Below are positions 1 to 4,324 of a stretch of DNA of 4,324 nt, piece by piece; the first letter of the stretch is position 1; every line of letters begins with the position of its first letter. The notes under the pieces were generated by a model. That model made no database searches. It saw only the letters and a program-made list of their open reading frames with translations, and was not told the DNA's origin. The stretch comes from a virus (Duplodnaviria > Heunggongvirae > Uroviricota > Caudoviricetes). The position numbers were made by a program, and so were the translations under genes. The stretch lies in the IMG/VR virus record IMGVR_UViG_2534681764_000020, positions 1-4,324 of that record. One strand, written 5' to 3'.

Positions 1-573
1 ATGTTTTGCGAAGAAAAAGTAGCTCAAATGGCTGCATACCTACTTCTTAAGCGAGGTGGGCGCATGGCATATCTGAAATTGATGAAGTTGCTCTATCTGT
101 CTAACCGCCAGTCGATTTTGAAGCATGGCAGGATGATCGGCGAAGATAGCCTTTACTCTATGAAATTTGGACCAGTCATGTCGAATACGCTGAACTTGAT
201 TCGCGGTAAGGCTGAAGGCATTGGTGACTACTGGTACAACTTGATAGAGACGAACGGGCATAATGTATCGTTGCGTTCAGATCCGAGGGAAATGGATGCA
301 GACGAGGTCTTTGATGAATTGAGTCGTGCAGATATCCGGATTTTAGATGAAATCTATTCTCGGTATGGGCATATGAACCGATTTGATCTCGCAAATATGA
401 CGCATTTAGAAAGCGTTTGTCCAGAGTGGCACGATCCTGGCAATTCTCGTAAGCCTATAGACCTGAAAGAAATGCTGATCAGTGAGGGTAAAAGCGAGGA
501 TGAGGCTAATCGCATAATTGGCAAAATGGAAGAATCTCAGAAACTTAAGGAATTTTCTTTGCAATTATCATGA
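1..573 (+). CDS. Panacea-domain (DUF4065) protein, PanA/SocA/GepA-like putative antitoxin; N-terminus may extend beyond the window
   Basis: The 190-aa ORF contains the segment LKLMKLLYL...GEDSLYSMKFGPVMSNTLNLIRG, which matches my recollection of the conserved Panacea core (LKLQKLLY...W.YGPV). Its stop codon overlaps the start of the next ORF (ATGA at 570-573). The ATG at position 1 coincides with the window edge, so the true start is uncertain. Confidence 0.72.
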   Translation: MFCEEKVAQMAAYLLLKRGGRMAYLKLMKLLYLSNRQSILKHGRMIGEDSLYSMKFGPVMSNTLNLIRGKAEGIGDYWYNLIETNGHNVSLRSDPREMDADEVFDELSRADIRILDEIYSRYGHMNRFDLANMTHLESVCPEWHDPGNSRKPIDLKEMLISEGKSEDEANRIIGKMEESQKLKEFSLQLS

Positions 574-989
574 CGGATTATCAGCCATACAGGAAAGGAA
601 CTGTGCTTGCCCCAACTGGGCCATGCAATCATCTTCATGTGATTTGTAATGATCCTGTTTATTACCCCGTTAACGATTGTTATTGTGTTTTAGTTGTTAA
701 TATTTCTAGTATCAAGGATGGTGTCCCCCACGATCCGTCTTGCGTCTTGAATTCTGGTGATCATCGCTTTATCAAGCATCCAAGTTATGTTGTTTACGCT
801 GAAGCTATAATTTGGCGAGTGGATAACATGGTTAGAAAGCAGCGATCGGGTGAGATTTCTGTTCATGATGATATGCCAGAAGCTACATTCAATAGAATTC
901 TGGACGGTTTTGATATCTCTGATGAAGTTACGCCAAAGAACCTTAAATTTAAAAATAAATATTGCGTATCATCTATTGATGATGAGTAA
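570..989 (+). CDS. hypothetical protein, candidate cognate toxin/effector of the Panacea-domain protein; fold unrecognised
   Basis: 139-aa ORF whose ATG overlaps the upstream stop by 4 bp (ATGA), suggesting translational coupling. There is no nearby Shine-Dalgarno sequence (AAGGAA lies about 18 nt upstream). The N-terminal half is Cys/His-rich (CNHLHVIC, CYC, SC...DH). The DNA looks AT-rich relative to the neighbouring operon. No family recognised from memory. Confidence 0.55.
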   Translation: MTDYQPYRKGTVLAPTGPCNHLHVICNDPVYYPVNDCYCVLVVNISSIKDGVPHDPSCVLNSGDHRFIKHPSYVVYAEAIIWRVDNMVRKQRSGEISVHDDMPEATFNRILDGFDISDEVTPKNLKFKNKYCVSSIDDE

Positions 990-1017
990 ACAACAGGAAT
1001 TGTTTCGGTATAACTTC

Positions 1018-1022
1018 AGGAG
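1018..1022 (+). promoter_or_regulatory. Shine-Dalgarno (AGGAG) for the 57-aa ORF
   Basis: AGGAG lies 6 nt upstream of the ATG at 1029. Confidence 0.6.
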
Positions 1023-1028
1023 TTTTCT

Positions 1029-1202
1029 ATGGAAGATCAAAAAGCAACCAAGCCACAGGTTAAGTTCGACACAATGAAAGCATTCGCAGGTATGGGTGCT
1101 GCTGTTGAAGTTCTGATGAAGGCTGCTCCTAATGCGTTCACTCACGCTACTGTCTCTGGTAAAGAGCAGCAGGGTAAGCTTCGTCGTCGCAAAGCAGCAT
1201 GA
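1029..1202 (+). CDS. small hypothetical protein (57 aa), not in the supplied ORF track
   Basis: Manual translation gives MEDQKATKPQVKFDTMKAFAGMGAAVEVLMKAAPNAFTHATVSGKEQQGKLRRRKAA, ending at TGA 1200-1202. It has a good RBS and is followed within 20 nt by a strong intrinsic terminator. Codon choice (GGT, GCT, CGT, GTT, TTC, CTG, AAA) resembles highly expressed enterobacterial genes. There is a hydrophobic/amphipathic core and a basic C-terminus. Confidence 0.5.
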   Translation: MEDQKATKPQVKFDTMKAFAGMGAAVEVLMKAAPNAFTHATVSGKEQQGKLRRRKAA

Positions 1203-1221
1203 TCATAGCTGGTGCTTTTTG

Positions 1222-1250
1222 AAAACCCGCCTTTAGGCGGGTTTTTTATT
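1222..1250. terminator. Rho-independent terminator at a convergent gene junction, probably bidirectional
   Basis: Perfect 10-bp inverted repeat AAAACCCGCC / GGCGGGTTTT with a 4-nt loop (TTTA), followed by TTTTTTATTT on the plus strand. It lies immediately 3' of both the plus-strand 57-aa ORF and the minus-strand gene ending at 1250. On the minus strand the trailing U-run is weaker (GGGUUUUC then A-rich). Confidence 0.82.
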
Positions 1251-1531
1251 TAGTGATGTTCTTTGCCCTTCTGTTTGCTTGTTCTGACCTGTTCCCACTC
1301 GATACGTCCTTCTTCTCGTCTTTTGTCTATGTATTCCGCAAGATCCTGAATATTGATGCAACGTTTTGCTTTTTGTGATGTGCCGATGCGATATGTTGGA
1401 ACGGGCAACTTACAAGCGTTTGCTTTTGCTTCTGCCGTGGATGGACTCATACCAAAGTACTTTTGGCTAACTGCTGAGAGTTCAATGTTTGGGGTATTGA
1501 ATTCAGCCATCAGTAAAAACAAGGTGTTCAT
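1250..1531 (-). CDS. PrtN/excisionase-like small DNA-binding protein (putative phage Xis or regulator)
   Basis: The ORF track gives 1250..1558, but that start is GTG with no RBS. The in-frame ATG at 1531 is preceded by GGAG with a 6-nt spacer and gives 93 aa. The segment IELSAVSQKYFGMSPSTAEAKANACKLPVPTYRIGTSQKAKRCINIQDLAEYIDKRREEG resembles PrtN/AlpA-type winged-helix proteins as I recall them. It is the last gene of the operon. Starts at 1543 or 1510 remain possible. Confidence 0.5.
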   Translation of the reverse strand: MNTLFLLMAEFNTPNIELSAVSQKYFGMSPSTAEAKANACKLPVPTYRIGTSQKAKRCINIQDLAEYIDKRREEGRIEWEQVRTSKQKGKEHH

Positions 1532-1567
1532 AATTTTCTCCATCAAAACCGGCTGCACCCGGGAAAA

Positions 1568-2140
1568 TCATAATTCTGTGCTGGTGGCAGGAATTAATTT
1601 CTGCCAGATAGCGGAAACATATTTTGCCTGATGACGGGCATCAGCCCGGGCGTTGTGCCGTTCGCCATCGAAAGGCATGTCCATTTTGGGGTCGAATCCG
1701 ATGGAACGCCCAAGCGTAACGATCGTGCGTACATCGTGGTCATTCCAGTATGCCCACGGGCAGATTTGTCCTGCTCGCTCATAAGCTCCACGTAAAATTA
1801 CGTTGTCGAAGGTGGCCCCGTTACCCCAGACTTTTAAATATTTCGTATTGTCTGCGTGCCGGTTAATGAAATGATTTAGTTCTGAGAGAGCATCGCTGAT
1901 CGACAAAGTATCATCAATGCAGATTGCAGCTCGTGCTTCAGGGCTTTGTTTCAACCACCACAGGATGGTATCGCCGTCAGGTGTAGCTCCTTGCTTCATA
2001 GCACTGTCTAGGCTGACAACCGCATAGAATTCTTGTCCGATGTCTCCGGTTTCGGGGGTGAAGAACACTGCGCCAATAGAAACGATCGGCGCATCCTTAT
2101 TTTTCCCCATCGTCTCAAGGTCGATCATTAAGTTGTTCAT
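1568..2140 (-). CDS. DEDDh-family (DnaQ-like) 3'-5' exonuclease, phage-type
   Basis: Motifs read directly from the translation: Exo I MIDLETMG (D, E), Exo II WGNGATFDN (D), Exo III H-NARADA (H...D). The track ORF (1568..2224) is over-extended: the ATG at 2140 is preceded by AGGAGGTG and overlaps the upstream stop as TGATG, giving 190 aa. Confidence 0.85.
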   Translation of the reverse strand: MNNLMIDLETMGKNKDAPIVSIGAVFFTPETGDIGQEFYAVVSLDSAMKQGATPDGDTILWWLKQSPEARAAICIDDTLSISDALSELNHFINRHADNTKYLKVWGNGATFDNVILRGAYERAGQICPWAYWNDHDVRTIVTLGRSIGFDPKMDMPFDGERHNARADARHQAKYVSAIWQKLIPATSTEL

Positions 2141-2421
2141 CACTTCACCTCCTGCGGCGGTTCTTGTATTGGCATCGACTGAGCTATATATAGCGGCTGA
2201 ACATACCAGCCCTTTGATAACCAACTGTCAGCAACGTTTTTACTTCTGGTTATTGCTGGAATACCCAAGCCATTGTCTGAATGCAGCCATGCCACCGGTT
2301 CTGCTTCCAGCGAGGCTAACGCTATTTCATAAGCTCGGCGCTCAATATTGTCTCGCACGTCCAAGCTGCCTATGCGCTCTTTGATTTCTTTAATCAGTTC
2401 TTTGTCGGTAAAAGTGGTCAT
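2140..2421 (-). CDS. hypothetical phage protein (93 aa)
   Basis: ORF with an AAGGAG RBS 6 nt upstream of the ATG at 2421. Its stop overlaps the exonuclease start. No family assigned confidently; contains EPVAW and PLY motifs of the sort seen in prophage proteins of unknown function. Confidence 0.6.
   Translation of the reverse strand: MTTFTDKELIKEIKERIGSLDVRDNIERRAYEIALASLEAEPVAWLHSDNGLGIPAITRSKNVADSWLSKGWYVQPLYIAQSMPIQEPPQEVK
2146..2153 (-). promoter_or_regulatory. Shine-Dalgarno (AGGAGGTG) for the exonuclease gene
   Basis: Reverse complement of 2146-2153 is AGGAGGTG, 5 nt upstream of the ATG at 2140 (minus strand). Confidence 0.65.
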
Positions 2422-2431
2422 GTGTTACTCC

Positions 2432-2695
2432 TTAACCCGCAGTGCTTTCAACTGACGAGGGGAACAAAATCTTTTCATCAAATCCGGCATTCATATCATG
2501 GACAGCAACACACCAATCCATTGACGAACGATTATCAAGAGCCTCCATGATTTCATCCATGCGGCGTAGGTCATACAGGTAAATATTTTTATCGCCAATG
2601 GTGTAAAAACCAATTTTTTTCGGTGATGGACAGCGATCAATAACGTCCTGTAATTCGTTCAACCATGCCTGTTCTTTTTTTGTCAAAGTTGCCAT
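2432..2695 (-). CDS. hypothetical phage protein (88 aa)
   Basis: Trimmed from track ORF 2432..2785 to the internal ATG at 2695 (MATLTKKEQAWLNEL...), which sits 1 nt after the upstream gene's stop and has an AAGGA motif upstream. The longer N-terminal extension would overlap the membrane-protein ORF. Confidence 0.5.
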   Translation of the reverse strand: MATLTKKEQAWLNELQDVIDRCPSPKKIGFYTIGDKNIYLYDLRRMDEIMEALDNRSSMDWCVAVHDMNAGFDEKILFPSSVESTAG

Positions 2696-2696
2696 A

Positions 2697-2915
2697 TCAG
2701 TTTTCCTTATACGGATTAATTTTATTGTGCAGTGTGTTGAACGACGCCCATACCACGTCGTTATACAATTCAATAACTGGCTCAATTATTTTCCCGATTG
2801 CCCAGACAAAAATTAGCGGGGATATCGGTATCATCAACACGATAAACAGAATGAGAAACAGGAATTCTGTCGTTCTACTCTTTCGCGGATATTCTTTTCT
2901 GAATAATGTCGGCAC
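2697..2915 (-). CDS. small single-pass membrane protein (72 aa), probable GTG start
   Basis: A basic N-terminus (RKEYPRKSRTTE) is followed by a roughly 24-residue hydrophobic segment (FLFLILFIVLMIPISPLIFVWAIG), consistent with an N-in transmembrane helix. The start codon at 2915..2913 is GTG, preceded by GGAGAG. AT-rich. There is no in-frame ATG that would keep the TM segment. Confidence 0.5.
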   Translation of the reverse strand: MPTLFRKEYPRKSRTTEFLFLILFIVLMIPISPLIFVWAIGKIIEPVIELYNDVVWASFNTLHNKINPYKEN

Positions 2916-2916
2916 A

Positions 2917-3249
2917 TCACTCTCCTTTGATGCGAATGCCAGCGACGCGTAGTGCGTGTTCTAAGTCAATCAGGCAAAGCCAACTGCCATTTTCTTTAGG
3001 TATCATGACATGTCGCTTATCAGCATTTATTGGGTGCCCATATCGAAGGTCGTAGCGAGTCGGTAATTGAACTTCCCTCGCTTCCAGTTCTGTAATGCGT
3101 TTGTTTTTAGCTTCTAGTTCATCCAGCAGCGCCAGCACAACCTGCGGTGTGACTTTCATACGAAATGCCAGCAATTTTTGTGGTGTGGCTACTATTTTTA
3201 TTGCTTCTGCCGCCTCACGCAGTGCCTGATAGTTAATTTTGGTTGTCAT
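2917..3249 (-). CDS. Ead/Ea22-like family phage protein
   Basis: 110 aa; N-terminal INYQALREAAEA and the central VLALLDELEAKNKRITELEAR coiled-coil segment match my recollection of Ead/Ea22-like prophage proteins. The start overlaps the upstream stop as ATGA, with a GAGGTG RBS. Confidence 0.6.
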   Translation of the reverse strand: MTTKINYQALREAAEAIKIVATPQKLLAFRMKVTPQVVLALLDELEAKNKRITELEAREVQLPTRYDLRYGHPINADKRHVMIPKENGSWLCLIDLEHALRVAGIRIKGE

Positions 3250-4124
3250 GCCACCACCTCTTCGAATTTCAACTCCAATTGATCACCCCAGATTTCACAT
3301 GACTCTGAACACGAGCCGGTATCGAATCGCCTGGCTTGCACCATCGCCTGATACAAATTTCTGTAGTCGCTGTCGGCATACATTCTGGCAATCCCGTCAA
3401 GACTCAGATGACCACGGTACATAACGTCTTTATCTGTCTTTCGGTGACCATCCCGGACGTGTTTACCTGTAACCAGCTCATTAAAAACTCTCATCAGACC
3501 AGGTTCGTCTTTACATGCAAGCCCCAGCTTTTGCGTGGACTTTTTGATGCAGAAAACACAGTTCCCGAGGTGCTCCGGGATTTGCAAATCAAAAGGTTGT
3601 TTATGCCACCACCGGATAACATCCGACTTATCAAAATCAGATAGCTCGGCAAGATACCGGACGCCTGATTTCGGTTTCAGCCTACGAGGTTCGTCTGCAC
3701 GAATACCCAGCCATGTGATGTAATTCCCTCGTCCGAAATGGTCATCGCAGTATTTTGTGAAGGGGGTGAGTTTTAATCTGTCAGTGCAGAACGCGCCGCC
3801 GATGTATGGCGTGCCATATTTTTTTACCATGTCCATAAACGGTTTAAGCACCGGCATTCGCGTCTGAATATCCTTTGGTTCCCATTCCGTATAACCATTT
3901 GGCTGCCCAAGCTCTGGATTTATATCGACCTGCAACACAGTTAGCGGTATGCCCCAGAACTTCACAACCTCCCGAATAAAGCGGTATGTCAGCGGATGTT
4001 CGCAACCGGTATCCATAAAGATGTAGCAGACGTTATTACCAGCCTTTCTTTGTTCTTCCATCAGGTGAACAAGATATGCAGATGTTCTCCCGCCAGAAAA
4101 ACTAACTACATGAGTTATGCACAT
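3246..4124 (-). CDS. phosphoadenosine phosphosulfate (PAPS) reductase family protein, PP-loop ATP pyrophosphatase superfamily
   Basis: 292 aa; an N-terminal PP-loop-like motif VVSFSGGRTS (a variant of SGGxDS), a conserved D-T-G segment and a C-terminal CxxC (CVFC). Its position in a prophage early operon next to an Ea22-like gene is common in enterobacterial prophages (from memory). Confidence 0.8.
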   Translation of the reverse strand: MCITHVVSFSGGRTSAYLVHLMEEQRKAGNNVCYIFMDTGCEHPLTYRFIREVVKFWGIPLTVLQVDINPELGQPNGYTEWEPKDIQTRMPVLKPFMDMVKKYGTPYIGGAFCTDRLKLTPFTKYCDDHFGRGNYITWLGIRADEPRRLKPKSGVRYLAELSDFDKSDVIRWWHKQPFDLQIPEHLGNCVFCIKKSTQKLGLACKDEPGLMRVFNELVTGKHVRDGHRKTDKDVMYRGHLSLDGIARMYADSDYRNLYQAMVQARRFDTGSCSESCEIWGDQLELKFEEVVA

Positions 4125-4321
4125 TTGCGTAATTCCGATAACTCGTTGAAGCGTGCCATAAACATCCCGTAGGCATGGCCCGGTGCCAGTGGAATCACGT
4201 TGAACATCTCTGTTGCCGGGATGCCTTCCAGTACAGGCCAGAAAGAGCCATCATCAAGCCCGAGATCGCGGCGTTCGGTTGCCAGCATGATGAGATCGGC
4301 ATATTTCACGGGTGTACTCAT
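4115..4321 (-). CDS. hypothetical protein (68 aa or longer), start possibly beyond the window edge
   Basis: The ORF overlaps the PAPS-reductase start by 10 nt. The reading frame is still open at the window boundary (codon 4322-4324 is sense), so the ATG at 4321 may be internal. Confidence 0.45.
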   Translation of the reverse strand: MSTPVKYADLIMLATERRDLGLDDGSFWPVLEGIPATEMFNVIPLAPGHAYGMFMARFNELSELRKCA

Positions 4322-4324
4322 AAC

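Follow-up and report, generated by a model that had tools for sequence, protein, structure and literature searches.

A DUF4014-family gene in the early-operon accessory block of an Escherichia coli prophage, predicted to encode a small single-pass membrane protein

This analysis concerns a small gene at positions 2697–2915 (minus strand) of a 4324-bp stretch of viral DNA, hereafter the window (positions 1 to 4,324 of IMG/VR record IMGVR_UViG_2534681764_000020). We found that it is a real, translated prophage gene of the DUF4014 family (PHROG 1832), and the gene call and the membrane-protein class of its product, taken jointly, are close to certain. The gene is already catalogued, as RefSeq annotates the same coordinates and the family has been present in Pfam and PHROGs for years. 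The list of open reading frames (ORFs) of the window contained a 72-codon ORF starting with GTG at 2697–2915 and a 117-codon ORF starting with TTG at 2432–2785 (both on the minus strand), which overlap in different frames over 89 bases (2697–2785), such that the first 30 codons of the longer ORF overlie the 3΄ end of the shorter one. The initial annotation had described the same arrangement, namely a small GTG-initiated ORF overlapped in another frame.

2697–2915, minus strand: coding sequence of the DUF4014 family protein (72 amino acids), with a GTG start codon at 2915 and a TGA stop codon at 2699–2697 (from the ORF list, Pfam, PHROG and RefSeq)

Because the matches to both Pfam DUF4014 and PHROG 1832 run from end to end, the 72-codon ORF is beyond chance. 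The protein matched Pfam PF13198 (DUF4014) with an E value of 1.5e-25 and a score of 89.8 bits (gathering cut-off, 23.2 bits), with residues 2–72 aligned to positions 2–72 of the 72-position model, and matched the PHROG 1832 profile over positions 1–72 of 72 (E 5.2e-46). All of the features of DUF4014 members were present: a basic N-terminus, an LF(I/L)VLM(I/V)PISP core and a C-terminal F..LHNK(I/L)NPY(K/R)E motif. On the chromosome sequence NZ_CP182174.1, RefSeq, using the Prokaryotic Genome Annotation Pipeline (PGAP), placed a ‘DUF4014 family protein’ (WP_001767792.1) exactly at 2697–2915. Annotated homologues occur in phages 933W (L0067), epsilon15 (gp46), ES18 (gp39), epsilon34 (gene 27), g341c (gene 23), HK225 (gp56), MG40 and D6; the window protein shared 94% amino-acid identity with 933W L0067 and 49–63% with the other seven (51% with epsilon15 gp46, and 51–53% for the epsilon15 and MG40 proteins). 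The 219-bp gene was found in 1020 out of 5426 complete E. coli genomes (19%), at up to six copies per genome and always annotated as DUF4014, and a profile search of 1.84 billion representatives yielded 25 proteins, all of which were DUF4014 family proteins, fragments or read-through fusions. A sequence search of the PDB returned no match at E ≤ 1, and Foldseek returned none among viral models (best E 6.9), as expected for a single kinked helix.

We then compared the two overlapping frames across 88 homologous loci, taking from each the gene with its flanks; 86 of the loci carried an intact 219-nt ORF, and these corresponded to 44 distinct ORF sequences. Among the latter, the ratio of nonsynonymous to synonymous polymorphism (pN/pS) in the 72-codon frame was 0.30 for both codons 2–18 and the transmembrane segment, and 0.32 for codons 42–72. 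Within the overlap, by contrast, pN/pS in the overlapping frame was 0.98–1.04, which was indistinguishable from that in the third, control frame (0.94–1.00). Stop codons interrupted the overlapping frame in 6 of the 44 distinct homologues, and the position of TTG 2785 was CAG in five of them. The start codon of the DUF4014 gene was found at the same position in all 86 loci (ATG in 56, GTG in 30). Downstream of the overlap, the two genes can be separated as follows.

2432–2695, minus strand: downstream gene (87 amino acids, PHROG 1714), starting at ATG 2695; RefSeq annotates WP_001767791.1 at these coordinates
2696–2785, minus strand: apparent N-terminal extension of the downstream ORF, starting at TTG 2785 and judged non-coding in that frame

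An alternative explanation is that the 117-codon ORF (TTG 2785 to 2432) is the real gene over 2697–2785, and that the 72-codon ORF is spurious or truncated. In the window, no stop codon interrupts its frame over the 30 codons that precede ATG 2695, and the same holds for 73 of the 86 closely related loci. However, approximately 10% of nucleotide shuffles of the overlap stretch give a stop-free run of 30 codons, and inspection of the sequence upstream of TTG 2785 revealed no comparable Shine-Dalgarno (SD) sequence. The PHROG 1714 profile (87 positions) aligns to residues 31–117 of the 117-residue translation, which are residues 1–87 when counted from ATG 2695 (E 1.4e-50), and PGAP likewise calls the short form. 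Moreover, the gene that follows the DUF4014 gene starts 1 or 3 nt past its stop codon in every locus, yet belongs to at least eight unrelated families (N-termini MATLTKKE..., MALTKKQRAE..., MTTITRENAE..., MATLQELIDL..., MTITTKEQQR..., MTELTKEQ..., MTFTEKEM... and MTTITKEQAQ...). The longer reading was rejected because one and the same ‘extension’ stretch precedes these unrelated proteins, and together with the pN/pS values, the stop codons and the lost TTG, we regard it as extremely improbable. Judging from these sequence comparisons, the 117-codon frame is open by chance and the next gene begins at ATG 2695. The initial annotation had favored this arrangement, a 72-residue membrane protein followed by a shorter gene from 2695, and the pN/pS values, RefSeq and the start of PHROG 1714 bear it out; it had also proposed asking which frame is conserved, and the answer, a maintained 72-codon frame beside an unconstrained and interrupted 117-codon frame, was the opposite of the pattern that would speak against the shorter gene.

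In phage Bas106, the gene is annotated from codon 19 onwards. Such an internal start was rejected here, given that codons 2–18 showed a pN/pS of 0.30 in frame; the Bas106 gene has the same GTG and SD sequence as the window. As a separate observation, several frameshift or read-through variants were noted. In D6 (locus L089, 2501–2956), the A-run before the stop codon is one base shorter, by which the DUF4014 frame is fused to that of an MATLTKE... protein (151 amino acids in total); protein P0138 shifts into the overlapping frame, and protein P0121 is a fusion of an Ead-like protein with DUF4014. These variants may be sequencing errors or pseudogenes.

The translated product has the composition of a bitopic membrane protein. 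Residues 1–16 contain five K/R compared with one D/E (net charge +4), residues 18–41 (FLFLILFIVLMIPISPLIFVWAIG) form an uncharged, very hydrophobic run of 24 residues in which Kyte-Doolittle hydropathy over 19 residues peaks at 2.96, and the C-terminal 31 residues have a net charge of –1. One hydrophobic segment of at least 20 residues is therefore present, with a positive bias on its N-terminal side, and the charge count and hydropathy agree with the positively charged N-terminus and single helix of approximately 24 residues described in the initial annotation. A cleavable signal peptide was rejected by inspection: the segment is 24 residues long, and position –3 of the only A-x-G candidate is A, I, F, V or L in relatives. 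Because of the positive-inside rule, the protein is predicted to adopt an N-in/C-out topology, in which its most conserved surface would face the periplasm. Two segments were delineated.

2796–2864, minus strand: predicted transmembrane helix FLFLILFIVLMIPISPLIFVWAI (codons 18–40), from the Kyte-Doolittle peak and the AlphaFold2 model, with a kink at the conserved Pro30
2703–2792, minus strand: predicted periplasmic amphipathic helix and tail F..LHNKINPYKE (codons 42–71), from the invariant columns and the hydrophobic moment

The AlphaFold2 model, computed from a 35-sequence alignment, had a mean predicted local distance difference test (pLDDT) value of 82, with values of 90–95 across the hydrophobic segment. 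It consisted of a helix at residues 14–28, a break at residues 29–31 (the conserved I-P-I), a long helix at residues 32–66 and a flexible NPYKEN end. P30 was invariant (alignment A2), and the hydrophobic moment over residues 36–57, in the helix just past the membrane segment, was approximately 0.50. When the epsilon15 and MG40 proteins were included in the alignment, 13 columns were invariant, of which 11 were located at residues 41–71; the invariant residues listed were G41, E45, E49, Y51, F59, L62, H63, N64, K65, N67, P68 and E71. The predicted cytoplasmic N-terminal part, on the other hand, varied between DUF4014 subfamilies.

The gene is translationally coupled on both sides, in the form TGA-N-GTG upstream and TGA-N-ATG downstream. 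The TGA of the upstream gene (2919–2917) ends one base ahead of GTG 2915, and this junction (AAAGGAGAGTGAT followed by GTG or ATG) recurs across many homologous loci. At the position of codons 70–71, AAGGA(A/G) or AGGGAGG was found in 86 out of 86 loci, whichever gene follows. The elements of the two junctions are listed below.

2917–3249, minus strand: upstream gene (110 amino acids), Ead/Ea22-like (Pfam PF13935, E 7e-12; RefSeq ‘ead/Ea22-like family protein’)
2922–2927, minus strand: strong SD sequence AAGGAG of the DUF4014 gene, 6 nt ahead of the GTG and within the codons with which the upstream gene ends (..K-G-E-stop)
2704–2708, minus strand: SD sequence AAGGA of the downstream gene, inside codons K70–E71 of the DUF4014 gene; the junction is TGA-T-ATG

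The boundaries of genes in this type of accessory block, here called the ‘ea’ block, displayed a common pattern (window positions 2693–2711 and 2913–2930; loci L001–L093), in which the SD sequence lies in the last codons, followed by the stop codon, 1–3 nt and ATG. Genes upstream of such boundaries often end in ..K-G-E-stop, and the unrelated genes downstream share near-identical first six to eight codons, M-(T/A)-T-(I/L)-T-(K/R)-E-(Q/N), encoded by ATGACCACTATTACCA(A/G)AGAA. These short conserved boundaries look like recombination linkers for shuffling single-gene cassettes. A second common upstream context (L047 and approximately 40 other loci, 30 nt ahead of the start codon), which occurs outside the window, is a GC-rich GNRA hairpin, GGCCGCCC-GAAA-GGGCGG-TAAGAA followed by ATG. 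The sole purine-rich SD-like stretch of these alleles is located in the loop and the 3΄ arm, and access to their start site might be under structural control.

The entire window matches the chromosome of E. coli CUPF06 (NZ_CP182174.1) at 100% identity; there, the locus forms a prophage end that adjoins a remnant of a tRNA-dihydrouridine synthase gene and the zur/yjbJ/lexA region. A leftward operon, directed away from an XRE-type repressor gene, comprises yfdP, yfdQ, yfdR, a gene for a 3΄-phosphoadenosine 5΄-phosphosulfate (PAPS)-reductase-like protein, the Ead/Ea22-like gene, the DUF4014 gene, two hypothetical genes, a 3΄-5΄ exonuclease gene and a PrtN-like gene. The neighbors are early-region genes, in accordance with the initial placement of the gene in an early operon, and the Ead/Ea22-like gene marks the ‘ea’ or exo-xis type accessory block that houses the DUF4014 cassette. 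A consensus scan of the coding strand found no promoter-like or terminator-like site flanking the gene, with gaps of only 1 nt to both neighbors. The gene is internal to a long leftward early operon and is probably not a prophage-expressed moron. Transcription of exo-xis genes starts early, from pL (PMC8614690). A strong hairpin at 1221–1246 (GAAAACCCGCC-TTTA-GGCGGGTTTTT) lies between a convergent 57-residue ORF (1029–1202, plus strand) and the PrtN-like gene (1250–1558, minus strand); it is A-rich before and T-rich after the stem, can terminate transcription on both strands and is probably the end of the leftward early operon.

Megablast identity to 933W-type Shiga toxin (Stx) phages was limited to 2684–2933, that is, the gene with 18 nt upstream and 13 nt downstream, and the upstream neighbors of homologues varied among Ead/Ea22-like, HNH and small hypothetical genes. 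The DUF4014 gene is accordingly a single-gene cassette in the non-essential ‘ea’ accessory block. In 933W, ea22 was seemingly split by an insertion that left its C-terminal domain as L0065 (PMC8614690, in which L0067 is not discussed), and L0066–L0068, including the DUF4014 gene, are located between the two parts. In epsilon15 and HK225, the gene is found in the same kind of block within a rightward early operon, and in D6 it resides in a P1-like plasmid prophage.

We propose the following role for the protein. Early in lytic growth, it would be made as a delayed-early accessory protein and would enter the inner membrane in a bitopic, N-in/C-out orientation. Its proline-kinked transmembrane helix and conserved periplasmic LHNKINPY tail would then bind a host envelope protein, and this binding would modulate the partner. 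At this size, as for other very small phage membrane proteins, an enzyme fold could not be accommodated. We consider the overall explanation, comprising gene, topology, cassette and envelope modulation, to be reasonably probable; the step in which a host envelope partner is bound could equally well hold or fail, and any single named target is unlikely at best.

Several points weigh against this proposal. The envelope-partner step was drawn solely from the size of the protein and its conservation pattern, and the positive-inside rule is the single basis of the predicted topology. The conservation of K/R70–E71, which A(A/G)GGA(A/G) encodes, may partly be due, at the RNA level, to the embedded SD sequence of the next gene. 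The promoter scan was a simple consensus scan, which weak or non-σ70 promoters could escape. In addition, a literature search on DUF4014 found no paper, and no experimental evidence on translation, membrane insertion, topology or phenotype was found. The DUF4014 gene is likewise not discussed in the epsilon34 genome paper, a review on exo-xis modelling or a paper on the exo-xis region of Phi24B. The Gnarl proteins, which are small phage proteins that alter the O-antigen (PMC12373910), were considered as a possible connection and set aside, as the DUF4014 name and the peptide motifs were absent from the supplements.

Databases attach two functional labels to the family. The first, ‘released from the phage upon host infection’, is the name used by RefSeq and PHROG 1832, and our literature search could not trace it to any paper. 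The second, ‘(O-polysaccharide/sugar) acetyltransferase inhibitor’, is attached to the MG40 protein and to some E. coli proteins, and it also appears in the notes for g341c gene 23 and HK225 gp56, both of which cite an older name of epsilon15 gp46 (‘acetyltransferase inhibitor protein epsilon15p46’). If taken literally, this label would imply that the protein inhibits a host membrane O-acetyltransferase of the AT3 family that acts on the O-antigen or another envelope glycan. Phages epsilon15 and g341 abolish O-acetylation of the group E1 O-antigen. The DUF4014 gene is carried by both epsilon15 and g341c, and a small transmembrane protein would be a plausible inhibitor of a polytopic enzyme. 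However, the depositors of the epsilon15 genome named gp46 a ‘hypothetical protein’, and in RefSeq the name ‘transacetylase repressor’ now belongs to gp28, another gene, which lies next to int. The similarity of gp28 to the DUF4014 protein is weak and dominated by the transmembrane region (pairwise BLASTP, 11/29 identities, E 0.001; the first 31 residues of gp28 resemble the N-terminus and the start of the transmembrane segment). Homology was rejected, as gp28 has no Pfam DUF4014 match and a different apparent architecture, and the sequence likeness is most likely compositional. The position of the DUF4014 gene in an early operon, downstream of annotated repressor-binding sites, also fits poorly with lysogenic conversion, and the gene is common where no O-acetylated O-antigen is involved, for example, in O157 Stx phages and in the K-12/C600 phages HK225 and D6. 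A literature search combining acetyltransferase inhibitor, phage and O-antigen found no paper and no reported experiment, and according to a review (PMC9558356), the proposed phage acetyltransferase inhibitors have not been investigated. The term ‘acetyltransferase inhibitor’ is a legacy annotation, and the activity that it implies is quite improbable for this protein.

The initial annotation had also likened the protein to Kil-type or superinfection-exclusion-type proteins, and this part was not supported: no match to Kil, DicB, SieB, Imm or a defense family was obtained with Pfam, PHROG, NCBIfam or PADLOC. At E ≤ 0.1, DUF4014 was the sole Pfam match, with none to Lambda_Kil, KilR or DicB; the PHROG search returned, other than 1832, two families, both of which have no known function; and PADLOC returned no match for the gene or its immediate neighbors. 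The label is a guess from architecture.

With regard to exclusion, an inner-membrane protein with a periplasmic tail could stop incoming phages from delivering their DNA or crossing the cell wall while the lytic cycle is under way, which is how T4 Sp, T4 Imm and HK97 gp15 act. The comparison with described exclusion proteins covered SieA/SieB, Imm, Sp, gp15 and Cor/Llp, and Pfam, PHROG and NCBIfam gave no match of this kind. The small N-in/C-out architecture, the predicted periplasmic location of the most conserved part and the status of the gene as an accessory gene widespread among temperate enterobacterial phages would all fit. Nevertheless, in addition to the lack of a match to any exclusion or defense family in Pfam, PHROG or PADLOC, the gene has no promoter-like site of its own and is therefore probably silent in the lysogen, where exclusion by temperate phages matters most. 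Furthermore, the phages that carry it differ widely in tail and receptor (933W and P22-like podoviruses, the siphoviruses ES18 and HK225, and the P1-like D6), which argues against a route-specific block. We regard exclusion as unlikely.

The possibility of a Kil-like host killer or cell-division inhibitor acting early after induction was weighed in the same manner. The protein is a small early-operon accessory product, and a phage division inhibitor with a single membrane pass exists in SPO1 gp56. However, apart from the absence of a Lambda_Kil, DicB or other Pfam match at the above threshold, conservation falls on the transmembrane helix and on the tail predicted to lie in the periplasm, with a cytoplasmic N-terminus that varies between subfamilies, a pattern poorly suited to inhibitors that act on FtsZ, such as lambda Kil. 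The gene is located in the ‘ea’ block and not in the cIII-kil-gam position, and up to six copies are tolerated in a genome, although these would be repressed. A Kil-like function thus seems rather improbable. The points raised against the Kil and exclusion labels are compatible with an envelope-directed role as proposed above.

A more specific form of the proposal is that DUF4014 represents a class of early phage ‘micro-inhibitors’, in which an N-in/C-out protein with a kinked helix and LHNKINPY tail would inactivate an envelope enzyme or machine that is conserved in enterobacteria. Candidate targets may include an AT3-family acyltransferase (WecH, OpgC, OafA or WbaK) or a component of the divisome or of a transport system. 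This extension is speculative and we hold it to be unlikely. If it were true, the cell surface would be remodelled during lytic growth, and a function would be given to a gene found in approximately one-fifth of complete E. coli genomes and in reference Stx phages.

Interest in the gene remains in that the family is common, yet the function of DUF4014 is not established. In the Stx phages 933W and VT2-Sakai, its gene belongs to the exo-xis type accessory region; this region has been tied in the literature to the lysis-lysogeny decision and prophage induction, in reviews that do not discuss the DUF4014 gene. If a host target were defined, the known set of small phage membrane effectors would gain a modest but useful member, and two misleading database labels would be cleared up.

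Other genes in the window were also noted. At the prophage end, a gene encoding a Panacea-domain (SocA-like antitoxin) protein (1–573, plus strand; Pfam E 2e-19) overlaps by 4 nt with a 139-residue ORF without a family match (570–989, plus strand; PGAP start at 603), and the pair looks like a PanA-type toxin-antitoxin system. Within the early operon, the PAPS-reductase-like protein (3246–4124, minus strand) matched PADLOC SspD (E 1.5e-15) and DndC (E 9e-4) and may be a PP-loop enzyme with relatives among DNA-phosphorothioation proteins. The 3΄-5΄ exoribonuclease gene (1568–2224, minus strand; Rv2179c-like, Pfam E 5e-74) would encode 218 amino acids from a TTG, with the domain beginning at residue 30. 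PGAP places its start at 2140 (190 amino acids), at an ATG overlapping the stop codon of the upstream gene, and here too the longer N-terminus is probably spurious.

We finally compared the gene with known systems. The DUF4014 relatives share with it the length of 72 amino acids, the basic N-terminus, the transmembrane helix and the LHNKINPYKE tail, and are found in the same kind of site, beside Ead/Ea22-like, HNH or DUF551 accessory genes in early operons. The window allele starts with GTG whereas most relatives start with ATG, and otherwise nothing substantial differs; compared with 933W, the window gene has another downstream neighbor. Epsilon15 gp28 (‘serotype conversion: transacetylase repressor’, 60 amino acids; L004, 11345–11527) is also small and hydrophobic and has a PRKS...LFLI start in common with the DUF4014 protein, but it seemingly contains two hydrophobic segments, does not have the C-terminal motif and lies next to int instead of in the early block. 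Lambda Kil, Rac KilR and Qin DicB are similarly small, non-essential products of the leftward early region of lambdoid prophages; however, they share no sequence similarity with the DUF4014 protein and occupy another operon position. Both lambda Kil and DicB work inside the cytoplasm, where FtsZ or MinC is the target, and neither is known to be a single-pass membrane protein that carries a conserved tail in the periplasm. The likeness to T4 Sp and HK97 gp15 is confined to the predicted architecture, an N-terminal membrane anchor and a short periplasmic C-terminal part, with no sequence similarity detected outside the DUF4014 family by Pfam, PHROG or PADLOC; and whereas HK97 gp15 is a prophage-expressed moron, the DUF4014 gene is internal to an early operon.

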